Virus record (IMG/VR): IMGVR_UViG_3300025689_000007
Location: 1,180-65,179 of that record
Length of the DNA stretch: 64,000 bases
Source: a virus
Lineage: Duplodnaviria > Caudoviricetes
Reading direction: 5' to 3' (one strand)
Of the stretch, positions 3,621-51,560 are shown piece after piece. The position numbers were made by a program, and so were the translations under genes. Below the pieces are notes generated by a model. The model had not been told where the DNA came from. It searched no databases and worked only from the letters and a program-made list of their open reading frames with translations. Numbering within the stretch: position 1 is the first letter of the stretch; every line of letters begins with the position of its first letter.

Positions 3621-5329
3621 TATGTTTCCTCTGAAAATTCGCAATTGGTCATATAAATTGCTGGAAATTGATTGTTCCCAAGTTTTATCTTTCTTAGTTG
3701 GTTCTCGCCTGGATATGTTGATGCTGCTTCTACATATTGAGGATAGTTACCGCTACTATTTGGTTCGTATACAGTATAACTTTCACAATCAATATTTCTT
3801 ATAATCAAATTCTGTATTCCTTTCACTTGAGACCAAGTTTCTCCCGTGGTGGATGATTCTGTTGAATCCATAATATAGTTTACAATATCAATGTGAGAAA
3901 TTGTTTCTGCAAATGAACGGTTTGCGGCATTGAAGTAGTATTCAAGTTTATCTCTCACATCATTCATTACATCTGTATAAACATATGTTCTTTTTATCTT
4001 AATACCTATATCAAATGAAAAATATACAAGATCAGGTAAATCAAACTGCTCATAGGTTGTAAGTATTTTTCTTGGTTCAAGATATGTAGATAGCGTTTCC
4101 ATCCAAGATGATGAGTATGCTAATGGAACAATGATTTCATCTTCTGCTCCACTTGTTGAATATGATATAGTCGAATCTCCCCACTCATTAGGTATCAGAG
4201 CGATGTGGACTTTGTTATATTCCTGAATGCTTCCTGACGGAGCAATCTCCTGTTCACCCCAAATGTGCGCTGCAATAATATCAGACCTTGCCTCAAGATG
4301 TGATCTATAATCTGCCGCTGTAACATTCCTGTACTGTGAGTGAATAGCCCCAGTTGATGCGTCCTTGATTTCTGCTATGGTATCAGGAGCAGATGAACCT
4401 ATAGTGGCGGTTAAATTTGTCACAGTATATTCTGCAATTGGAATTGTATCTCCAGTTGTTCTGTTTACCAGAAATGTCGTTTCTGGAGATGTAATTGTAT
4501 TTGCACCGGCCGCCCCGTCAGCTCCGGCAGTTTTCAAGAGATAAACAACTATATCATCTGTAAGCTCGGGAACAGTTCTATTATTGGAAAATTCTATCAG
4601 ATACTTTTCATACTTGTCAAATCTCAACATATAAACTGTATCAACCGTTGATAATGGTGATAACTCATCATAAAAATCAGAAACCCTTGTCCAGACTTCA
4701 TCATTTACTTGAACTTCTACTGAAGGATGTTCTGTTTCATCAATATCATCATCATAATCATAATTTTCAAATGGAAGATAAAGAATGTTATCAATCAAAT
4801 CTTCTCCTCTATATGTGTATGTTCTTACAATTCCCTGTCTTATCGGAACTGTTTCTGTGAGTGTATATGGAAAGGTTGCAGTTGTAGGAATTGTATAAGT
4901 AAAATCGGTGATAGTTGAAAATCTCAAAATATCTCCATTCTCATCTGTAAGATCCGGCGCATCAACTTGTTTCCATCTCTGAATATGGATTTCATCGCCG
5001 GGAGAAATACTTGCACTTGTAAGAATTGTAATTGTTAAATCTGTCTGTGCTGACCTATATCCCTGTGGGTTATATCCTCTCAACCTTGATAGCATATGAA
5101 CTGTTTCATACAAGTCGGCTGTGTCTATATATTGATTTTTTGCAACCTTATTTGTATAATAAGTTGTAAGCGCCCCAAGATATGCAATCAGTTCTATAAG
5201 AAGAGTGATATTACTTCCCTCATAATTATAATCAGCAAAGGTAGTTGTGTTTGCAAGTAAATCTGCTATCCTTGCTTTTATAGTGGGAAAATCCATATTT
5301 AGATAATCTGGAATTAATGTATTTGCCAT
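3620..5329 (-). CDS. gp6: baseplate wedge subunit
   Basis: DFPTIK...F.DYNYEGSNI..LI.L.AY, R..GY.P, IRQG, and D.I.EIK...Y..Q.R.VTA.DY are typical gp6 motifs. Confidence 0.9.
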   Translation of the reverse strand: MANTLIPDYLNMDFPTIKARIADLLANTTTFADYNYEGSNITLLIELIAYLGALTTYYTNKVAKNQYIDTADLYETVHMLSRLRGYNPQGYRSAQTDLTITILTSASISPGDEIHIQRWKQVDAPDLTDENGDILRFSTITDFTYTIPTTATFPYTLTETVPIRQGIVRTYTYRGEDLIDNILYLPFENYDYDDDIDETEHPSVEVQVNDEVWTRVSDFYDELSPLSTVDTVYMLRFDKYEKYLIEFSNNRTVPELTDDIVVYLLKTAGADGAAGANTITSPETTFLVNRTTGDTIPIAEYTVTNLTATIGSSAPDTIAEIKDASTGAIHSQYRNVTAADYRSHLEARSDIIAAHIWGEQEIAPSGSIQEYNKVHIALIPNEWGDSTISYSTSGAEDEIIVPLAYSSSWMETLSTYLEPRKILTTYEQFDLPDLVYFSFDIGIKIKRTYVYTDVMNDVRDKLEYYFNAANRSFAETISHIDIVNYIMDSTESSTTGETWSQVKGIQNLIIRNIDCESYTVYEPNSSGNYPQYVEAASTYPGENQLRKIKLGNNQFPAIYMTNCEFSEET

Positions 5330-5744: not shown

Positions 5745-6038
5745 TTATTCACAATCAACATTAGGCGATCCTGCAACTATAGTTCCACTATATGTTCCAG
5801 AAAAAGAATCACCTATTCTTGCGATTGCCCTCCCATTGGCATTTGTGTTTAGTGCTCCTGAAACTATCGTTCCAATATGACCACAATTGGCTCTTACTTT
5901 ATCACCTACTCTTGCCACACCTATACCATTTGCATTTACATTTGGCGAACATTCTATAATAACACCATCTTGATAACCGTGTATGCCTGATGAACAATAT
6001 CCTGTAACTGCATCTCCCAATCTACTTACTTTAGCCAT
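5745..6038 (-). CDS. PAAR-type spike tip protein (gp5.4-like)
   Basis: Three R.GD repeats (SRLGD, ARVGD, ARIGD), C/H ligands and a terminal GSPNV; directly after gp5. Confidence 0.85.
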   Translation of the reverse strand: MAKVSRLGDAVTGYCSSGIHGYQDGVIIECSPNVNANGIGVARVGDKVRANCGHIGTIVSGALNTNANGRAIARIGDSFSGTYSGTIVAGSPNVDCE

Positions 6039-16956: not shown

Positions 16957-16985
16957 TATTTATGGATATTTCAATTATATTTATA
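16957..16985 (-). promoter_or_regulatory. two T4-type late promoter motifs upstream of gp18
   Basis: TATAAATA at 16978-16985 and CATAAATA at 16957-16964 on the minus strand; a gp55 homologue is present in the window. Confidence 0.65.
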
Positions 16986-18302: not shown

Positions 18303-18635
18303 TTACGCTGGGCCGGGATTTTCTTCCTGTTTTTTCTTGATAATTTCCTCAACATCACTTATAGCCGTGTTTATTGACAATATCTTGCCATGTATCCTTA
18401 CTGCTTTATAGCCTTGCATTTTCCAGCTTTTGAGTTTAATCAATATTTGCATTTTAGTCATATTATTCCACATTGAATTTGGAATTTCCTTTACTTTTTC
18501 TTCAAAGAGATACTTTTCCAAAAGTTTATCTACTTTATTCATTGCTACTTTTTCTTCTCTTTCTTTTCCGGTCATTTCCTCTTTATCGGTTCTTCTCCAA
18601 TGTAAAGTTTGCTCTTGAAAATTCAAGGCGGTCAA
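18303..18635 (-). CDS. small hypothetical protein with CTS-like motif
   Basis: True start probably internal (ATG 18575 or 18542): MNKVDKLLEKYLFEE. Confidence 0.5.
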   Translation of the reverse strand: MTALNFQEQTLHWRRTDKEEMTGKEREEKVAMNKVDKLLEKYLFEEKVKEIPNSMWNNMTKMQILIKLKSWKMQGYKAVRIHGKILSINTAISDVEEIIKKKQEENPGPA

Positions 18636-19725
18636 CCAATTTCAATATATTACCTGATCTATCAATAACACAAAAACCTTCTGGTTTTGCTACATTGTAA
18701 CCTTCCCCACTACGGATAAATGTTCCTATATTGCTGATTTCACTGAACTTTCTGACAAATATATCTTTCAACCTGATGAAAATCAAATAAAGATATAGTA
18801 ATCCCATTATTTCTTTCTTATATTTAGTTAGAAAATGATGCGCAGAATCTATCATTTCCCTTCTTTTCTGTTTTGCTTCTGGTGATTTCACCTGTTCTGC
18901 TTGTTTCTCATATTTGTCCTTTATGAATATCATAAAATCATCATAGTAAAGTGATACGGAGCGGAGAGCGTTTGCCTTCTTGATGTTTTCGTTGTGGAAT
19001 ATCATGAATAATTGATATAGCCCGAAGCTTTTCATCTTTTTGAAAATATCTTCCTTGATATATTTCGCAACCCGCTCTGCTTCTGAAATCAGTTCATTTA
19101 TCCTGTCAATTTCCGGCTTGGAGAAGTTTACTGTGCCGGATTCATCCCTGAAATAGGCATCCTGAAGCCAGACATTTGGATTATTAAAATACCTTGATAC
19201 ATCTATATTAAATTTGGCCGAAAGCGTATCAAGTGTATCTCCTGTGTATTCCGTGTGAACGACAATACCCATTTTGGCTTTATTGATCCTGTTTGCAAGG
19301 TCTGAACCGTCATTTGGTATAGCATAGGTTATTGTATTCGGTGTAAAAGTAATATATGGCATTCCGTTGATATTCTCTATTTTCTTATCATCTGTAAAAA
19401 GAAGATCTCCCTGATAAATTGTTTTCACTCCCAATTCTGATAGATACTTCAGGGAAGTTTTCAGCTTAGCTGCCAGACCAGGCGCATGACCGAAATATTC
19501 ATTTACATCTTTATAATTATATGCAAGTTTCGGTGTCTTGTTGAAAATGGCTTTCGTAGAAACAAAGAATTTTCCATTTTCTGGATTAATACCAAAAAAC
19601 ACTGCTGGGCTATTATGAATAAGAATATATACATCACCGGCTTTTACATAAAAATTCTGATTATGTGTTGTCATATCACATTCTGGATATTTCTGTTTTA
19701 TCTTATTCACTTTTTTGACTTTCAT
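18583..19725 (-). CDS. split intein C-half (38 aa) fused to the C-extein of a conserved T4-like ligase-like protein
   Basis: MKVKKVNKIK...CDMTTHNQNFYV...ILIHN then Ser+1 of SPAVFFGINPENGKFFVSTKAIFNKTPK; QGDLLFT and PEGFCV...LKLVDRLEF further on. Confidence 0.88.
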   Translation of the reverse strand: MKVKKVNKIKQKYPECDMTTHNQNFYVKAGDVYILIHNSPAVFFGINPENGKFFVSTKAIFNKTPKLAYNYKDVNEYFGHAPGLAAKLKTSLKYLSELGVKTIYQGDLLFTDDKKIENINGMPYITFTPNTITYAIPNDGSDLANRINKAKMGIVVHTEYTGDTLDTLSAKFNIDVSRYFNNPNVWLQDAYFRDESGTVNFSKPEIDRINELISEAERVAKYIKEDIFKKMKSFGLYQLFMIFHNENIKKANALRSVSLYYDDFMIFIKDKYEKQAEQVKSPEAKQKRREMIDSAHHFLTKYKKEIMGLLYLYLIFIRLKDIFVRKFSEISNIGTFIRSGEGYNVAKPEGFCVIDRSGNILKLVDRLEFSRANFTLEKNR

Positions 19726-19809
19726 ATTCTATAAGCCCTTTCAGTTTTTCAGATTGGAAAAATGTTTTTTCATCATCATATTTACAAAAAGAGATGGTTA
19801 TCTTCCCAT

Positions 19810-20868
19810 TTATTCGGTTTCTTTTATATTATCATTTTCATTCAATTCTATAGCCTTCACCCAACCCCTATTGATTGTATAAAATTCGTGATCCTCTGTA
19901 ACTATTATTTTATCACCATTTTCCAACTCAACTTCTACCCAATTTTTATTATTATGATTTATTCTTGGTTTTATTGCTAAATTCAACTCATCAATACCCT
20001 TATCAAAATTATAAGTAAAAACTTCCACATCATTTTTACCAAGAATCTCTTTCATTTTCATATCACCGTTTTTCGTCTTGATTATTGTATCTGGATGAAT
20101 ACAACCATCCCATTTCACTGTGATAGCCGCCTTTGATTTCGATCCACCGGAAAGTGTATCACGAATGAGTTTGGCTAATTCGATATTCTTTTCTATACCA
20201 TTCACGCCGTTGTTAAACATATTATCCTCAAAATGTTCTATATGCCGATTTATATCTTCATTGAGCACTTCTTGAATGGTATATATTCTTTGTTCCTTGA
20301 AGATTTGGCCTCTGACATTTCCAGGCCTTCCAATGGTTGCCCTGAGAAATTCCCTGAATTTCTCAAACCACTCCTTATTATCCAATCCCCTCGCTACATT
20401 TCTTTTATACTCCTCGAAGTCATTTTCTCCGATAGCCTTTCTTACCTTAGATGCAGAAATATCTTCTGCTGTTCTCTTGATTTCATCAAAGATTACATTG
20501 TAATCCACTCCGATAAACTGTTTTTTATAGTCTTCAATCCTGTCAGAACCGGCTATGATTGCAACACCATTGCTTGTTTCAATGTTTTCCTGTTTAATAA
20601 TATCTGGAATATAACCGTGAGAAGATAAAATCGGATGTGCTTTCGGGTTCGTTATCTTGAGAATGGATTTTCTCTGATTGTATGTAAGGAAATTTTTGGC
20701 GAGTTTTGAGGATTTCTCTCCCTCGATGATAAAAATGTATACCTTTGAATATTTCTTGAGAGAGTCTTCAATAATTTTTTGGTGGGCTTTTGTGGGTGGT
20801 GACATTCTACCTATAAAAATACCCACCGCTCGTGACTTCTGTTCTGTAATGTAATTTGAAAATCTCAT
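19810..20868 (-). CDS. HxGH nucleotidyltransferase (cytidylyltransferase-like) plus ligase-like N-part, ending in a split intein N-half (97 aa)
   Basis: GRMSPPTKAH, IAGSDR, ISASKVR motifs; HIEHFED...ITVKWDG, then CIHPDT.I...VTEDHEFYT..GWV.A.EL to the stop. Start reassigned to MRFSNYITE at 20868. Confidence 0.85.
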   Translation of the reverse strand: MRFSNYITEQKSRAVGIFIGRMSPPTKAHQKIIEDSLKKYSKVYIFIIEGEKSSKLAKNFLTYNQRKSILKITNPKAHPILSSHGYIPDIIKQENIETSNGVAIIAGSDRIEDYKKQFIGVDYNVIFDEIKRTAEDISASKVRKAIGENDFEEYKRNVARGLDNKEWFEKFREFLRATIGRPGNVRGQIFKEQRIYTIQEVLNEDINRHIEHFEDNMFNNGVNGIEKNIELAKLIRDTLSGGSKSKAAITVKWDGCIHPDTIIKTKNGDMKMKEILGKNDVEVFTYNFDKGIDELNLAIKPRINHNNKNWVEVELENGDKIIVTEDHEFYTINRGWVKAIELNENDNIKETE

Positions 20869-20934
20869 CTTAATAATGATATTTACTACCAGTATATATG
20901 TATTTCTTTCCAAACCGGTGTTACATTTCTATAC

Positions 20935-25496: not shown

Positions 25497-25504
25497 TATT
25501 TATA
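25497..25504 (-). promoter_or_regulatory. late promoter motif
   Basis: TATAAATA just downstream of the terL stop. Confidence 0.6.
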
Positions 25505-25507
25505 ATT

Positions 25508-28069
25508 TTAATTAATTAATTTACCAGTTCTTGAAAGCCAGCTCCAATCCTCTGCAATCGGTTCAATATCACTTAAAACACCCCAAACATCGTCCTCTAT
25601 TTCTGTCTTTTTGATCTCAAATGATTCTTCCAGCATATCGGTTGTGGTAAAATAACATCCCCAGTATAAGGCTGTAATAAGGTCATCTGGCATATCTTTC
25701 CCAAAAAATTTACCTTCTTTTTCAATAAATGTGGATATTTGGTCCACAGTATCATAATCAACTATTGTCAAACTACCATCTTCCACAAGCTTTTTCATAA
25801 GCATGACGGCTCTTGGCTTGGTTCTGCGATCTGCTCTTACTCCTAAATCCTTTGTTTTTGAGCCAGAATTAACAAGACCGGGGTTTTCATACTCCCACCA
25901 TAGCCTTGTTACAACAGTTGAGCCCTCTGCATTGTTCTCCGCCATAATAAAGGCTGAATTATAATAGATTGATGTCCTATTTACAATGTCCGCAAATGTA
26001 TAAACATCAATATAATTATCATTGAATGTCGCTACTTGTTGCAATATAATTGGTTTGACCTGAACAATTTTCAATACCTGCATAGTAGAATAATTTTCTC
26101 CTGTTCCCTTTGCTGTGTCAACACCAATAACATAAACCGCCTTTTCTACTGGTTTTTCGTATATTTTGAGTTTCCCATTGGCCTGTTCAACTATCGGTCT
26201 GGTGCATTTGTCATATAATTTTTCAATAATGTCGGAATCTATAACTGTATTTGTAGAACCAAGAAATTCACATTCATATTCCTGTATAAATTTCTGTTTA
26301 CCAAGATTCTTTCTCTGGTCCGAAGCCCATTTCCTGTCTCTGCCCGGAACATCCTTCCAAGTTGATTTGATAGCAACGAAAGTGTTTTCCTTTCTTTCTG
26401 CTTGAGTATAAAGCCTGTGATATAGATTGAACATACCATTTGGTGTGGAAATGATAACAACTCTGGACTCTGATGAGGCGGCAATTGTAGGAAGGTTGGA
26501 TGACCAGAACTCTTCCGCCTTGTTTTTCTGAACGAAAGCAAACTCGTCAAGTATCAGGAGATTTATAGTTCTACCACGGAAAGAATCGGGAGATGTAGCT
26601 GATACCATAATTTTTGAGCCATTATCAAAATTTACGAATGTTTTGGAATATTCCTGAACGCCCGGTTTCAACCAGACGGGAAGCTCCTCATACATTATTT
26701 TCAGGCGGGAAAGAATGTCAATAGCCGATATCTGTTTATTAGACGCAATTCCAACGATTTTATCGGGATTAAATATTGCATACCAGAGAGCGTATGCACA
26801 TACGGTAGTCGTATTATGTGTTGGTATCATCGTTTTTCCACAAAGGAAAAGATGTTCATCATTGTCTACCTGTATACATTTTACAGGAACAGAATTAACC
26901 TTTATGATATTTTTGATGTATATTCTTGTATTTTTATCATGTCCAAAACATTTTGTTTGTCTATCTTTTTTTCTGGAAAGATTGAAAACAGAGAACCGTG
27001 TTGTGGAAAAAACAAGTGAATGATATCTTTCTCCATTTATAACTCTGTAATTCAATTTTGTTTTTATTCCAATAGATGAAAAAATTTCTCTTATATCTTC
27101 TATAAGAGTTGAAGATTTTTGAGAGAACTCACAAACCCCATCTTTCCCACAATAACCATTTGTGTCCATGAGACCTCGTATAAGTTCAAGTTTCTGATTT
27201 ATAGAAGCTGAAAAATATACTTTTGGTATATGTTTATTATTGATGAGATTAATTTTCCTCAAATCAATCATTAATTTATAAACATTAAAATACCCCCCAT
27301 TCTCATTTCTCCAATCTTTTTTAAAAGATGATGTTAAATACTTTTCCTGTATTATTTTGGAAATCTCATTATAGTCATTTATAGATGTAGATATTCTTCC
27401 ATTTACTAAATGACCTTCCCCCAACCATATACCAAGAATATATGGGTCTACGGGCAATTCAATATCGTCATTCACCACACCAGAGTGATAATTGATATAA
27501 TAAGAATGAGATGTATTACTGAATTTATCAAAAATTTCTTTTGTTGTAAGAACTCTTTCTTCGTGAGTTGTTCTTGGATTGTCTTGACTATTTTTATGAC
27601 CAAAATTTGATGAACCCACACACCATAAATGTTCCTCATCAACAACTATTCTTTCTCCATTGTCAAATTCAATCTCATAACAATTATGATTTTCCATAAC
27701 TTCTGTTACAAAAACAACTTTTGTGGGCTTACCATCCCTCCCAATGAGAAAATCCCCCACTTGAACATCACCTATCGTTGTCCATTTACCATTGGGTTGA
27801 GGCAAGGGAGTATCAAGAGCAAGTGCTTTTCCAGACTGCCTGCTCCAAAGACCAATGACAAATCTTTCATCTTGTAAAATTTTTAGAATTTTTCTCTGAT
27901 AAGGATACGGCTCAAATGCTATTCTTCCCCTATCAGGATGAATAATTTTAACATATTTCAGGAACTCCCATATATCTTGAGAGCATTTAGACAATGCGGC
28001 TACTTCTTCTGGTGAATATGAATATTCCTGAAGCGGCCTTTTTATAAAATCATCATATTTTACTGGCAC
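25508..28069 (-). CDS. gp17: terminase large subunit with intein
   Basis: Walker A SRQSGK/T split by an intein, Walker B LLILDEFAF, STPNG.FN.Y, F.QEYECEF.GS, and nuclease motifs GVDTA.G.G.NYS, AENN..G, DDL..AL. Confidence 0.97.
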   Translation of the reverse strand: MPVKYDDFIKRPLQEYSYSPEEVAALSKCSQDIWEFLKYVKIIHPDRGRIAFEPYPYQRKILKILQDERFVIGLWSRQSGKALALDTPLPQPNGKWTTIGDVQVGDFLIGRDGKPTKVVFVTEVMENHNCYEIEFDNGERIVVDEEHLWCVGSSNFGHKNSQDNPRTTHEERVLTTKEIFDKFSNTSHSYYINYHSGVVNDDIELPVDPYILGIWLGEGHLVNGRISTSINDYNEISKIIQEKYLTSSFKKDWRNENGGYFNVYKLMIDLRKINLINNKHIPKVYFSASINQKLELIRGLMDTNGYCGKDGVCEFSQKSSTLIEDIREIFSSIGIKTKLNYRVINGERYHSLVFSTTRFSVFNLSRKKDRQTKCFGHDKNTRIYIKNIIKVNSVPVKCIQVDNDEHLFLCGKTMIPTHNTTTVCAYALWYAIFNPDKIVGIASNKQISAIDILSRLKIMYEELPVWLKPGVQEYSKTFVNFDNGSKIMVSATSPDSFRGRTINLLILDEFAFVQKNKAEEFWSSNLPTIAASSESRVVIISTPNGMFNLYHRLYTQAERKENTFVAIKSTWKDVPGRDRKWASDQRKNLGKQKFIQEYECEFLGSTNTVIDSDIIEKLYDKCTRPIVEQANGKLKIYEKPVEKAVYVIGVDTAKGTGENYSTMQVLKIVQVKPIILQQVATFNDNYIDVYTFADIVNRTSIYYNSAFIMAENNAEGSTVVTRLWWEYENPGLVNSGSKTKDLGVRADRRTKPRAVMLMKKLVEDGSLTIVDYDTVDQISTFIEKEGKFFGKDMPDDLITALYWGCYFTTTDMLEESFEIKKTEIEDDVWGVLSDIEPIAEDWSWLSRTGKLIN
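26813..27826 (-). mobile_element. class 3 (Ala1) intein with LAGLIDADG-type domain, 338 aa
   Basis: Starts ALALDTPLP and ends IPTHN/T; W in block B (EEHLW), C in block F (VKCIQV), T in block G (PTHN); endonuclease motifs LGIWLGEG and IRGLMDTNG. Confidence 0.9.
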
Positions 28070-46295: not shown

Positions 46296-49200
46296 TTATA
46301 GAATTTTGTCTATTTGTTCTATAATAACTTCAGGTTTTATGGTTCGCGAACACTCATATTTTTTATTTCTTGGGCACCAAGTCCAATTTCCCCTGTCATA
46401 TGGATGTTTTATGTCATTGTAACATCCTCTGCAGATTCCTTCCGGTGGAGAAATTCTTATACAATCATTCATTTCTGACCACGGCTCGGAAAAACCGGAG
46501 ATAAGAATGACAGGTATATTCAATGCCCATGCAAGCCAAGAGAGACCGGAACCAACTCCAATGAAAAGTCTCGAATTGTAGATATTATTTATTGTTTGTT
46601 GAATTGTTGAGTTTGTTCTGTCAATGATATTTTTTAATTGTGTAGGCTCTTTACTGACAACCATTACACCATATCCCCTGTCATTCAGGGCATCAACGAC
46701 TGTTTGCCAGCCAAGAGGGTAATGCCACCTTTTACAGAGAAGGGTTGAATGTTCTGAAATTGTTACATACGGTTTCTTGACATTCTTTTTTTCTGCTGTA
46801 ACCTTTGGTCTCACTTCCTCGTATTCAAGGCCGAGATAATCCGTTGCAACTTTCTGTAATGGAACCAATCTCCAATTGTTTTTATTTGAGTGATAGTCAT
46901 TATCCCGGCATCCCACATTATAATAGATATCAGGTCTAAATTGACCCGGCTCTACAAATTTCAAATCCGGATATTCCTTCTCAAATATCCTATTCCAGAA
47001 TGTTGACACATAAAAGTTTTTGCAACCGTGTTTCTCCTTAAATATCTTTGCGTAGGGGAACCAAGCCAATGTATCACCCAGCGCCTTACTGTCAAAATAT
47101 ACAAGAACCTTATTGTTCACAAGATCAAGTTCATATGATTTGTACGGCTTCCCATCCTTATTAATCATTATTTGCCAGTTTACATAGTATCTCGCATTCG
47201 GAGCAATCCAATGATTCGGTTTTATTTTACCCCTATGAATTTGAAGATTTACATCCTTGTCAAAAAAGCCTACATCGTATTCTGAACTGCTATTACCAGT
47301 AATCTCCACCTTTACACCATCAATAAAGGTAACCGCAATTTTATCTTCAGACTCCATCCATCCCTTGTCATCAGACGGATTCCATCTTTTACAGATTAAT
47401 CTTCCGTCCTTGAACTTGAAATTGGTTTTGGTATAGTCCTTATTCTCCTCCCTTTCTACTATTTTATATGACCATTTTTTTGTTTCAGTATTGACAGTAA
47501 ACTGGACAACTTTATTATCCGCTGTTTCAGATAGAAATACTCTTTCTATCGGCTCCTTTTTTCCTTGATCAAATAAATTCCTTTCCTTGATGATTTTATA
47601 TTTCATATCATTTTTGGTGAATAGAAAAATATCTTTCCAATCGGCATTTGCCTTGAAATAATTATACAACCAGTTCTCAAAAATCAGGTCAATTCTGATC
47701 TTGGTCTTTTCGGAGGCCTCTGCAATTACTTTGTTGTAGTCACTCCAAGATGAAATGTCCTTCATCCTTTCATTCATCCATTTTATATCAAATGAGAAAA
47801 GATTAGAGATAATTCCGTATGTCGGTTCCATACCGGCTACTTTTCTTGTATTTTGTTCCTCATCATACATAAAGCCGACCAGTTTGTATTTTTCAAGCTT
47901 CTTCCCAGCTTCGGAGAGGTAAAGGTCAAGATCAGCATCAATGTCAAATTCTATAAAATGCGCAATATCATATTGAGAGAGCACTCTAACGGCATTTACC
48001 AGTGATGAATAACAGGCGGCCCCGTGGTATTTCGTTTCATATTGGGAAACTATTTTTACTTCTTCATTTTGGAACCAATAGTTGAGGTTCCAACCATCAC
48101 TCATAATATTATTTGCATCATAAACATAGTAATTCACCATTTTCTGTATATCAGTAGAAATTGGATAGTGAGATACAAGAAGAACAGGATATCCCCTGTC
48201 TTTTACTTCTTCTATCATTCCTATGGTAAGTTCTTCCTTTTCAGGCAAGTCTGGATAGGTATCAATAATGAAAATTTCTTTCAGGTGCCTTTTTTGTGCT
48301 TCGACATAAATACATTGCTGGTCATGTGACCAGATATCTTTCATTACGATATTTCTGAATCCTGCTTCCGCAAGAAGACTTTTAAGTTTTCCTCTTGTGA
48401 AACCAACTTTATGCTGTTCACCTTCATTGGTCTGCAAGCCGAAAATAGTATCAAGATGAAATCCCCATTTTTCCTCATCAGTTTTTCCAAGCCAGGTTTT
48501 CACAACCCACTCAAAATCCGGAACCTCAAAAACAAGTTTTCCACCATAATTCAATATACGGTAACATTCTTTGAAAACAACCGGCACTTCATACTTGTTA
48601 AAATGCTCCATCAAATGTGAAGAATAGACCTCATCAAAAGTTTGATCATCATAAGGAATTTCTTTCGCATCAAAGTTCACATCGGCTCTTTTATCAAACT
48701 TGTCTGCATTGATATATCCGACTTTAATGTCACCACCACAACCCAAGTGTAATCTTTTTGTCTCAACTTTTTTACCCTTACTTTTTCCCGATCCAAATTG
48801 TTTGAGAATTTCAACGGATTTATCAACTGCCTTCTCCCAAGTAAAATCTCTTCTCACTACTTCAGATTGTTTGAGGGCTTTCTTTTTACATTCTTCATAA
48901 TTCTCATAAATTTCCCTCATTACTTTCTTGAGATGTTCATAGTCTGGCTCGGCCCATTCGCCCGGCGTGTCCTTCTGCATAAAAACATTTTCAGGCCTTC
49001 TCAATTCCTTGATGTTTACCAAATGGGATGCGTCCTTACAGAACTCCAATTGGGCTCCCCAGTTTGATGCGATTGTTGGTATTCCTGTTGCAATTCCTTG
49101 ACAATTATGAACAGTGACATTACATAATAGATAACTTTCATCCTCTTCCACTTCAAAATTATAAACCGGCCCATCATAAAAAATATTTTTCACATCCTTT

Positions 49201-51560
49201 ACAAGGATAGCCAATCCCTGATTTATAAACCAAGAATAATTACTGTGTCTATAATTTTCATTTTCTCTACTCCACCAAATAACAAAATCTTCTCTTTTAT
49301 TTTCTCTCCGAACAGACTTTCGAATTGATGCCTTTCTTCCTAATCGTTGGTTTGCCAATACAAGTTGTCGTGCCAATTCTTTTGATATTGTTGAACAGGA
49401 AATGTTTCTATCTGTTATGTGCCCATTACTCTTTGCATATTCATCAATAACAATTCGAAGATTTTCAACATCTCCAAATAACAATTCATAAGGAATTTTC
49501 TTTTGGTCAGCCTTTTCACCACAATAAAAAGAAAAAAACTTTGACAGGAGGGTAGAACTAACTCTTGCTTGAATTTTTGTTGGATACTCTGTATAACTTC
49601 CAACAGCACCAAAAATCTCTTTTATATCTTCAAGCCACTTTATTACGACATCTTTTTCTTTTATATTTACCGTTATATTCACTCTTGATTTATCTGAAGA
49701 ACATCCTTCGGCAATATACCAACCAAATACATAAGATAAGTCAGATAAATTTATAAATCTTTTGTATTTTTTCTGTTCGCCTTTACCATTATATCCGGTA
49801 TTATACCATACATAATCATTATCATATAATAATCTATTATCAATATCTTTCATATCAATTATGATATTTTTATTATATTTCTGTGGAATGGTTGTTCTTA
49901 CAATCAAATCCCCCTTCTTTATGTCAGATGCCCTCACCCATTCAGGAACAATTTTATCCAGATATTTTCTGAATTTCCCCCTGATTTTTTCTCTTTTTAT
50001 TGTAAGTATGGGATGTTCATTCGTTACATTTATTGGCTCATAATCTGTCCATAAACGGATGGAAATAATATCTTCTTTTATTTTTCTTTCAAATTTTTCA
50101 ATGACTTTTCTTTCTCTTCCAAGATGTGTTATAACATTATCATCTACATTTATATTCTCAATTGGTGTTATTCCTTCGGATGTTACAACTTCAGATCCCT
50201 TTATAACACACAAAGGAAGATTCCATCCTTCTGATCTTGAACAGGTCACAAGACAATGACAAGAACGAAGATAAGAAAGATAAAGATCATCATTTTCCGG
50301 AAGCCCCGTCACAATTTTTATTCGTGGATCAATAAGTTTATGTCCGGCTAATCTTTCCTGTGTAGTGTTGTAATCATCCTGTTTGAATGGGTTTTCAATC
50401 TGACAAATAATATCGACAGGCTCATCTTTCTTGAACTCTTCAATAAAAGCTCTCAAAATTTCTGCGGTAGATTTTCTATAATCCCATCTTCCACAAAGAA
50501 GAAACTTAAACCTTTCATCATTCAATACCTTTATTGGTGGCTCGCCAGGACAGAAAAAATTACCATTAACACCTTCCGGTACAACAAATATCTTATCTGC
50601 CGGATATCCCTGTTCTATCGTGCACCATCTCTGCCAATTTGTGGGAACCCACATCATATCAAATTCAAGTAGTTTTTGAAAAAATTGCTCTGGCTGCCTT
50701 GTGCTCTCCCATACATTGTAGGCAACTTTCGGCCCGTCATAATTCTCATAATAGTAATAATGATTTGTTTCAAGTAGAATAATGTTTATGATTCTATGGT
50801 AAAAATTTCGATTGAATGGTTGACCCAATTGATATGGCGGCTGTGTCCAAGTCTGGTGAATGACCATATTCTTCTGTTTTTCAGAAAGATGTGACAAGTC
50901 TGGTGTGTATGCAAAATTTCTTATTCTTACGGGAAGATGGTCTGCAAGTCGAGTAAAATATTCTCTTGCGTGGTAGGCATATCCAGTATGGGGAATAAAG
51001 CTACAATGACCAATGACCAAATCAAAAGGAATGGGTGTATCAAGTTTCACATTTGGAATTTTTCTCATCTCTACTCCCTTTACACCATAAAATAAAACAC
51101 CCTTTTCGGGATCATCTTCTATAATGACATTTTCCATATCGGAAAAAATTTGTCTGAAATTTTCCTTTGTATATCGCCAGTAATCTGATGGATAGTTGTG
51201 AACTGGAAAGCCGGGTGATCGGGTAGTGATAATAAGCTTGCCGCCTGTACGGAGAACTGAAATCATATTCTCTATGGCGGCCTTCCAATCTTGAACGTGC
51301 TCAAGAACTTCTGTGCATATTACAATGTCAAAACTATTTTCACCATACTTTTTGGCAAGATGTTGAACATCACATATTTCATCAACACCTTTACCCTTTA
51401 CAATATCAGTTCCAAGATACTTTGACGGATTATGTTTCTCGACATAATACCTTGCAGAGCCATTTATATCGAGGGAACCAACTTCAAGGATATTTTTACC
51501 AGCAATATCTTCCGGTTTCAAATATTTTTCAACAAACGACAAACATGCTTGATTACACAT
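46296..51560 (-). CDS. multi-domain methyltransferase/glycosyltransferase protein with intein and C-terminal BAHT (TibC/Aah)-like domain
   Basis: MTase 1 (ILEVGS..SFDIVICTEVLEHV); GT-B/GT4 (GRWDYRK, RSEGWNLP); intein; MTase 2 (LHLGCG, YSSHLMEH); C-terminal SKALGDTLAWFPY...FIG.GSGLSWLAWAL..P..LISGFS...CRGC..WCP..EC. Confidence 0.85.
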   Translation of the reverse strand: MCNQACLSFVEKYLKPEDIAGKNILEVGSLDINGSARYYVEKHNPSKYLGTDIVKGKGVDEICDVQHLAKKYGENSFDIVICTEVLEHVQDWKAAIENMISVLRTGGKLIITTRSPGFPVHNYPSDYWRYTKENFRQIFSDMENVIIEDDPEKGVLFYGVKGVEMRKIPNVKLDTPIPFDLVIGHCSFIPHTGYAYHAREYFTRLADHLPVRIRNFAYTPDLSHLSEKQKNMVIHQTWTQPPYQLGQPFNRNFYHRIINIILLETNHYYYYENYDGPKVAYNVWESTRQPEQFFQKLLEFDMMWVPTNWQRWCTIEQGYPADKIFVVPEGVNGNFFCPGEPPIKVLNDERFKFLLCGRWDYRKSTAEILRAFIEEFKKDEPVDIICQIENPFKQDDYNTTQERLAGHKLIDPRIKIVTGLPENDDLYLSYLRSCHCLVTCSRSEGWNLPLCVIKGSEVVTSEGITPIENINVDDNVITHLGRERKVIEKFERKIKEDIISIRLWTDYEPINVTNEHPILTIKREKIRGKFRKYLDKIVPEWVRASDIKKGDLIVRTTIPQKYNKNIIIDMKDIDNRLLYDNDYVWYNTGYNGKGEQKKYKRFINLSDLSYVFGWYIAEGCSSDKSRVNITVNIKEKDVVIKWLEDIKEIFGAVGSYTEYPTKIQARVSSTLLSKFFSFYCGEKADQKKIPYELLFGDVENLRIVIDEYAKSNGHITDRNISCSTISKELARQLVLANQRLGRKASIRKSVRRENKREDFVIWWSRENENYRHSNYSWFINQGLAILVKDVKNIFYDGPVYNFEVEEDESYLLCNVTVHNCQGIATGIPTIASNWGAQLEFCKDASHLVNIKELRRPENVFMQKDTPGEWAEPDYEHLKKVMREIYENYEECKKKALKQSEVVRRDFTWEKAVDKSVEILKQFGSGKSKGKKVETKRLHLGCGGDIKVGYINADKFDKRADVNFDAKEIPYDDQTFDEVYSSHLMEHFNKYEVPVVFKECYRILNYGGKLVFEVPDFEWVVKTWLGKTDEEKWGFHLDTIFGLQTNEGEQHKVGFTRGKLKSLLAEAGFRNIVMKDIWSHDQQCIYVEAQKRHLKEIFIIDTYPDLPEKEELTIGMIEEVKDRGYPVLLVSHYPISTDIQKMVNYYVYDANNIMSDGWNLNYWFQNEEVKIVSQYETKYHGAACYSSLVNAVRVLSQYDIAHFIEFDIDADLDLYLSEAGKKLEKYKLVGFMYDEEQNTRKVAGMEPTYGIISNLFSFDIKWMNERMKDISSWSDYNKVIAEASEKTKIRIDLIFENWLYNYFKANADWKDIFLFTKNDMKYKIIKERNLFDQGKKEPIERVFLSETADNKVVQFTVNTETKKWSYKIVEREENKDYTKTNFKFKDGRLICKRWNPSDDKGWMESEDKIAVTFIDGVKVEITGNSSSEYDVGFFDKDVNLQIHRGKIKPNHWIAPNARYYVNWQIMINKDGKPYKSYELDLVNNKVLVYFDSKALGDTLAWFPYAKIFKEKHGCKNFYVSTFWNRIFEKEYPDLKFVEPGQFRPDIYYNVGCRDNDYHSNKNNWRLVPLQKVATDYLGLEYEEVRPKVTAEKKNVKKPYVTISEHSTLLCKRWHYPLGWQTVVDALNDRGYGVMVVSKEPTQLKNIIDRTNSTIQQTINNIYNSRLFIGVGSGLSWLAWALNIPVILISGFSEPWSEMNDCIRISPPEGICRGCYNDIKHPYDRGNWTWCPRNKKYECSRTIKPEVIIEQIDKIL
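49104..50210 (-). mobile_element. class 1 intein with LAGLIDADG-type domain, 369 aa
   Basis: Starts CVIKGSEV, has block B VTNEHP, ends VYNFEVEEDESYL..VTVHN/C; endonuclease motif FGWYIAEG; second motif degenerate (YAKSNG). Confidence 0.92.

Follow-up and report, generated by a model that had tools for sequence, protein, structure and literature searches.

A probable natural split intein in the most conserved motif of a DUF6267 phage protein, with the scar of a deleted endonuclease gene between its halves

Two adjacent open reading frames (ORFs) on the minus strand of a phage genome fragment, located at 20913/20868..19810 and 19725..18583, very probably encode the two halves of a natural split class-1 intein, whose removal would rebuild a conserved phage protein. 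The fragment, hereafter called the window, comprises 64,000 nucleotides (nt) of the IMG/VR virus record IMGVR_UViG_3300025689_000007 (positions 1,180 to 65,179), which is most of a 65-kb record estimated as about half complete. The neighbours of the split gene, gp13, gp15 and a T4-type terminase, identify the phage as T4-like. The upstream gene (N-half) ends in an intein N-fragment, and the downstream gene (C-half) begins with the corresponding C-fragment. The spacer of 84 nt that separates them is the scar of a deleted HNH-like endonuclease gene, a feature that was not seen in the initial annotation of this DNA, made from the sequence alone. That annotation also did not recognise that members of this intein family usually occur as a 'fractured gene' (Dassa et al. 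2009), that they are common in metagenomes, and that the host counts as a ligase-type enzyme only tentatively.

When the two exteins are joined in silico, they form a protein of 597 residues, counted from ATG 20868, that consists of a cytidylyltransferase-like domain followed by DUF6267. It aligns end to end with nine uninterrupted homologues of 550-604 residues (49-63% identity) and with zero gap at the junction, where the homologues read TVKWDG/APAVFFG and the window has Ser instead of Ala at position +1. The DUF6267 profile PF19782 (cut-off 27) is divided at the same point: positions 1-47 (37.9 bits) end at the end of the N-extein, and positions 47-376 (288.7 bits) begin at the start of the C-extein. 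In 12 homologues the residues K, W, D and G do not vary, and in the uninterrupted family none of K, W, D, G, A, P and A does, which places the intein inside the most conserved motif of the protein. Across the split alleles, the motif is K-x-D-G. The longest ORF of the N-half begins at TTG 20913, and the true start is ATG 20868 according to the alignment with homologues that begin with MNF.

The intein N-fragment starts with the block A nucleophile Cys1 (codon 20103-20101), contains TEDH in block B and has an acidic tail. The C-fragment holds CDMTT...ILIHN/S, and thus the block F Asp, the terminal His-Asn and Ser+1 (codon 19611-19609). The N-fragment alone matches the Intein_splicing profile PF14890 with 40.0 bits (cut-off 35.8) over profile positions 6-92, and a six-frame search reads positions 6-155 over both halves and the intervening stops with 42.8 bits. 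The C-fragment corresponds to the end of the profile through position 155, and the split point is located at the loop in which endonucleases are inserted. The N-fragment has a net charge of -7, and the first 14 residues of the C-fragment carry +6. Among solved structures, the NrdJ-1 split intein (8ubs) is closest to the N-fragment (E 3.8e-5). The read-through translation is also collinear with a contiguous intein found at the same site in a related protein, P0081 (E 9e-31), and in this alignment the spacer residues are unpaired, the gap falling precisely where the N-fragment stops and the C-fragment opens with Met-Lys-Val.

The initial annotation had proposed a 97-residue N-fragment with Cys1 at 20103, TEDH and an acidic tail, and a basic 38-residue C-fragment ending in IHN with Ser+1 at 19611; both descriptions hold at every coordinate. 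The acidic/basic complementarity that it described is borne out by the charges, and the alignment to an intein profile that it recommended gives the PF14890 scores reported above, for the N-fragment alone and for both halves. Its predicted splice junction, ITVKWDG/SPAVFFG, is seamless when compared with the nine uninterrupted homologues, its length of about 597 residues is correct from ATG 20868, and the motif that it named, TxKWDGAPA, is real and invariant in the uninterrupted homologues.

In the proposed mechanism, both halves would be made from the neighbouring same-strand genes, and the acidic N-fragment would associate with the basic C-fragment into a single HINT fold. An N-S acyl shift at Cys1 would be followed by transfer of the acyl group to Ser+1 and by cyclisation of the terminal Asn, and the exteins would be joined to the 597-residue protein with KWDG-SPA at the junction, within the most conserved motif of the host family. 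Judged from its sequence, the split intein is most likely active, and splicing is presumably needed for the function of the host protein.

The intein belongs to a large family. A query made of the N-fragment and the 55 extein residues before it was searched exhaustively and returned 132 cluster representatives at E below 1e-10. Among the best 150, at least 61 contain HxxHxED and have a Cys right after KxDG, with the protein ending some 100 residues further on, and up to 96 show this pattern by a looser rule. The C-fragment, being a short query, retrieved 2 clusters only from a word-indexed protein collection. Most split relatives are N-halves of about 160 residues that lack the cytidylyltransferase domain. 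At locus L008 (5526-8669), the C-half is a protein of 1047 residues, in which the DUF6267 C-extein runs into a long C-terminal extension, and the N-half has a different N-terminal region, likewise without the cytidylyltransferase domain. Three representatives (P0072, P0101 and P0081) carry a contiguous mini-intein at the same KxDG/S site. P0081 keeps the Met-Lys-Val with which split C-fragments begin, suggesting that it arose by fusion of a formerly split intein. In a tree of the N-fragments of about 100 residues, the three contiguous forms nest separately among the split ones, with most nodes weakly supported.

The origin of the spacer can be read from the closest relative of the locus (L003/L014), whose N-half protein is about 72% identical and which has an ORF of 247 residues between the halves. 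The spacer of the window corresponds to L003 positions 5033-5064, the leader of this ORF, joined directly to positions 5750-5801, which fall inside the last 24 codons of the ORF; these codons run 23 nt into the C-half gene. Compared with L003, 685 nt are missing. In each of the eight distinct related loci that could be read, the halves are 674-818 nt apart, and an ORF of 217-265 residues between them runs at its 3' end into the C-half gene; the window is the sole locus of the nine without an intervening gene. The ancestral locus would thus have been a 'fractured gene', in which a free-standing HNH-type homing endonuclease gene lay between the intein N-half and the intein C-half. A deletion of 685 nt would have taken out the endonuclease gene and left its leader and its last 24 codons. 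These leftover codons lie before and across the C-half start, and the translation start region of the C-half is probably among them. Precisely the 52 nt ahead of the C-half start in the relatives escaped the deletion, which would fit a need to keep this region.

The assignment of the intervening ORF of the relatives to the HNH-type homing endonucleases is made with moderate confidence, on the basis of sequence motifs and profile matches. Residues C163, D186, H187, N209, C211 and N218 are invariant in four diverged copies, in the HNH order C..DH..N..N. In a profile search against the PDB, eight of eight matches were entries of the Cas9 HNH domain, although the E-values were weak (0.014-0.09), and seven of these eight covered the motif region. 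A match to phrog_3339, annotated as 'homing endonuclease' (E 1.7e-5), covers a different part of the protein from the HNH motif, and no Pfam match was obtained for the ORF. In another representative, P0022, the N-fragment continues in frame into the last approximately 45 residues of an HNH-like protein. Here the endonuclease gene was shortened from within, independently and in another lineage, which is another route of endonuclease decay.

Comparison with L003 also provides information on the history of the cassette. The nucleotide identity is 69% for the N-extein, 85% for the intein N-fragment, 93% for the spacer, 90% for the intein C-fragment and 92% for the first 60 nt of the C-extein, whereas the C-extein overall is 72% identical. 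At synonymous sites the exteins are saturated, and the intein fragments show divergences of 0.64 (N-fragment) and 0.17 (C-fragment). Because its identity is higher and its synonymous divergence lower than those of the exteins, the cassette is much younger in this pair of loci than the host genes. This pattern is the signature of homing with co-conversion and indicates, at the sequence level, that the cassette is mobile. With a ratio of non-synonymous to synonymous substitution rates (dN/dS) of 0.14, the N-fragment is under purifying selection, and so is the C-extein (0.06; both exteins about 0.06).

Several observations weigh against an active split intein at this locus. The block F residue that is His in NrdJ-1 is Gln in the window and Glu or Asn in its relatives; Glu is likewise found at the aligned position of the TFIIB mini-intein 5o9j, to which the read-through translation has a weak match (E 0.2). 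AlphaFold2, run on the read-through translation without an alignment, gave a predicted local distance difference test score (pLDDT) of 34, and the model was discarded. Upstream of the C-half start, the resemblance to a Shine-Dalgarno sequence is weak (AAAGGG). The dN/dS value of 0.55 for the C-fragment is uninformative, since the fragment is short and has 11 changes. Finally, the leader part of the spacer reads TGTAAATA where L003 has TATAAATA, the T4 late-promoter consensus, and the late-promoter-like motif of the window is thus one base off; the L003 leader also contains GAGGTGG. That the spacer motif serves as a promoter is a guess. The consensus TATAAATA itself occurs 12 times in the window, 11 of them on the coding (minus) strand, a total that is not above chance, and several copies are located just upstream of gene starts, e.g. 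at 16978-16985 and 25497-25504.

The intein fragments could also hold the two halves together without splicing, and the enzyme would then work as a non-covalent two-chain protein. Split phage genes that function without splicing are on record (cited in PMC2677866), and two-chain proteins have been described for the endonuclease-split nrdA of phage Aeh1 and for intein relics, yet this explanation is quite improbable here. Over 84 cluster representatives, the conservation of Cys1 and of the block B residues T, D and H reaches 95% or more, and the block F Asp, the terminal His-Asn and Ser+1 are kept in all seven C-fragments that were seen, so that the catalytic positions, including the block B Thr and His, persist across dozens of diverged clusters. 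Furthermore, the +1 residue is always Ser in intein-containing alleles and Ala in intein-free ones, a pattern to be expected only of a nucleophile in use. The break also lies inside the invariant KWDG/APA, where 135 foreign residues would be hard to tolerate.

A slimmer chance is that the locus is decaying and non-functional, the deletion having crippled the expression of the C-half as well, so that the protein is effectively lost. The absence of the intervening gene from the window alone among the nine loci and the mismatched promoter-like motif of its spacer are in line with such decay. However, both ORFs are intact (352 and 380 codons, the latter from ATG 19725), and the low dN/dS of the exteins and the N-fragment relative to L003 is that of maintained genes. 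The deletion moreover left the 52 nt before the C-half start exactly as they precede it in the relatives, and the identical sequence is found in sludge and digester samples collected from 2016 to 2024.

With the terminal stop of the N-half (19812-19810), the spacer (19726-19809) holds TAA, TAA, TGA and TAG in the frame of the N-half. Contigs from four runs of four studies (2016-2024), which sampled activated sludge (2016), bioreactor sludge (2023) and two anaerobic digesters (2024), match positions 19300-20400 with 0 differences, spacer and stops included. The two best-matching runs may be the source sample of the record, but the digester runs are not. The whole spacer is bridged by two short independent contigs, covering 19481-19869 and 19702-19945. 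The initial annotation had argued that the stops are not a single-base error and had called for confirmation of the spacer with raw reads; the four stops of all three kinds and the assembled contigs of the four runs uphold this view. As the independent contigs are identical, a sequencing error or a contiguous intein is excluded as far as the DNA data show. The shared reading frame of the two halves, 87 nt apart, might suggest that the intein is truly contiguous, and that the split arose in assembly or sequencing or is overcome by read-through. This is hardly credible, since four stops of all three kinds mean that no single recoding could read through, independent contigs of four studies agree and eight related loci are split at the same point. 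A terminator-like site was looked for on the coding strand between the halves, and none was seen. The features of the locus are listed in Table 1.

Table 1. Coordinates of the split gene, its domains and the spacer in the window
Feature	Position	Strand	Remarks
N-half gene	19810-20868	-	352 residues from ATG 20868, plus stop; 255-residue N-extein, then 97-residue intein N-fragment
Cytidylyltransferase-like (NMNAT/PPAT-like) domain of the N-extein	20437-20820	-	
DUF6267, N-terminal 49 residues, ending in the invariant KWDG	20104-20250	-	PF19782 profile positions 1-47
Intein N-fragment, 97 residues	19813-20103	-	Cys1, block B T-E-D-H, net charge -7; PF14890 match
Left part of the spacer, the intergenic leader before the endonuclease gene in relatives	19778-19809	-	Aligns to L003 5033-5064
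Remnant of the endonuclease gene, last 24 codons plus stop, the final 23 nt of which are also the start of the C-half gene	19703-19777	-	Aligns to L003 5750-5824
Intein C-fragment, 38 residues	19612-19725	-	Basic leader, block F Asp, terminal His-Asn
C-extein, 342 residues plus stop, from Ser+1; remaining part of DUF6267	18583-19611	-	PF19782 positions 47-376, E 1.1e-85

The organisation of the locus resembles the fractured genes described by Dassa et al. 2009 (PMC2677866), who reported 26 such loci, spread over eight host types and equipped with endonucleases of the GIY-YIG or Vsr-like kind. Their set includes gp41-1, gp41-8, NrdJ-1, NrdA-2, IMPDH-1 and others, as well as gp41-7, which has no endonuclease, and HNH enzymes were predicted to be able to act in fractured genes (PMC2677866). 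As in these loci, a conserved phage gene is broken at one locus, the halves keep their original order and orientation, the fragments are acidic and basic, and the split lies at the usual endonuclease-insertion loop. In the relatives of the window, a free-standing endonuclease gene also lies between the halves and overlaps the start of the C-half. The window differs in that it retains only 84 nt and a remnant of 24 codons in place of a free-standing endonuclease gene, and it is in this respect a derivative like gp41-7; compared with that endonuclease-free case, it additionally shows a readable deletion junction. Further differences are the DUF6267/cytidylyltransferase-like host, which is outside the eight types, and the endonuclease of the relatives, which is HNH-like rather than GIY-YIG or Vsr-like. 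A literature search on HNH enzymes in fractured genes returned general papers only.

Among individual split inteins, NrdJ-1 (8ubs, 9omb) is the best solved relative and has the same fragment sizes and the same split point, but the match spans N-fragment residues 9-93, is diverged with several gaps, and concerns another host and insertion site. The cyanobacterial DnaE inteins (Npu, Ssp) are likewise natural split class-1 inteins with Cys1, an acidic N-fragment and a basic C-fragment of about 100 and 36 residues; in contrast to the window, their halves are located far apart in the genome, the +1 residue is Cys, and the similarity is marginal (E 0.3-0.5). The suspicion in the initial annotation that the host gene is not among the reported split-intein hosts fits the literature searched: searches for DUF6267 and for intein together with cytidylyltransferase and phage gave no match, and no paper was found that names the DUF6267/cytidylyltransferase phage gene as an intein host. 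The locus is thus a natural split intein of the known fractured-gene sort, in a host gene found in no paper.

Related N-fragments also occur outside DUF6267, at the ends of the N-halves of ribonucleotide reductases, of a UvsW-like helicase and of PHA02142-type proteins with an oligonucleotide/oligosaccharide-binding (OB) fold. In the PHA02142-type N-halves (P0149, P0125, P0153 and P0140), the intein follows directly after E-K-x-H/N-G, and motif I of the T4 RNA ligase Rnl2 is EKIHG. Inteins of this family thus lie at one equivalent position, just behind the glycine of motif I, in recognisable RNA ligases as well as in DUF6267. The two groups are alike in that the N-fragment comes right after the Gly of K-x-H/N-G, which is equivalent to KWDG, and they differ in their hosts, since the ligase-type proteins combine a PHA02142-type OB fold with KxHG and do not contain DUF6267. 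These four metagenomic N-halves of Rnl2-like RNA ligases may represent another, undescribed split-intein host.

The parallel insertion site bears on the function of the host protein, which is present in 338 phage records, mostly from T4-like cyanophages and the pelagiphage HTVC008M, where it is annotated as hypothetical and sometimes located next to a 'cytidyltransferase'. On the basis of the KxDG motif, one structural match and the analogy with the intein site in Rnl2-like ligases, we slightly favour the view that the host is a ligase-like lysine nucleotidyltransferase. The structural match comes from Foldseek and VIA searches with a model of a 584-residue homologue, in which the N-terminal NMNAT-like domain dominates and one ligase entry was returned for DUF6267. 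Other searches returned no ligase: hhalign of the family against T4 Rnl2, the single ligase tried and used as a single sequence, gave no relation (probability 0.1%); a Pfam scan of 12 family members with E up to 10 found no ligase family; and a PDB profile search matched the N-terminal domain only. A protein atlas search returned no usable match.

The window contains other inteins. The large terminase (T4 type, 853 residues), encoded at 25508-28069 on the minus strand, contains a contiguous LAGLIDADG intein with matches to Hom_end_hint (residues 93-137) and LAGLIDADG_3 (residues 292-357), and the terminase of L003 does likewise. A multi-domain protein of 1754 residues (46296-51560, minus strand), with methyltransferase domains and a heptosyltransferase-like end, carries a full-size LAGLIDADG intein at about residues 451-819. 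Together with the split intein, these two bring the number of inteins in this phage to at least three. The octamer GTAAATAT is found on the minus strand at 20879-20886, 11 nt before the start of the N-half, and, within the spacer, at 19778-19785, 53 nt upstream of the C-half start; the window has 10 copies, compared with 5 expected.

The DUF6267 inteins could be arranged as a natural series through the life cycle of split intein and endonuclease, leading from the fractured genes with HNH enzymes via the fusion in P0022 and the scar in the window, in which both halves are in one frame and 29 codons apart, to the contiguous mini-inteins. This arrangement is tentative and rather unlikely. If true, it would mean that a split intein can become contiguous again once the endonuclease is lost and the halves fuse, with the window as an intermediate.

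At the level of the single locus, the window offers a rare direct footprint of a step predicted by the gene-breaking model, in which the endonuclease is lost and the split intein is kept. Natural split inteins underlie tools for protein ligation, for which fast and mutually orthogonal pairs are wanted, and the family provides dozens of diverged natural pairs with Ser+1 and a 38-residue C-fragment, plus contiguous siblings for comparison. For the host, an uncharacterised protein that is widespread in T4-like phages, including cyanophages and pelagiphages, the insertion point singles out KWDG as the likely active-site motif. That related inteins follow motif I in Rnl2-like RNA ligases is a hint, open to testing, that this protein may be a lysine nucleotidyltransferase.

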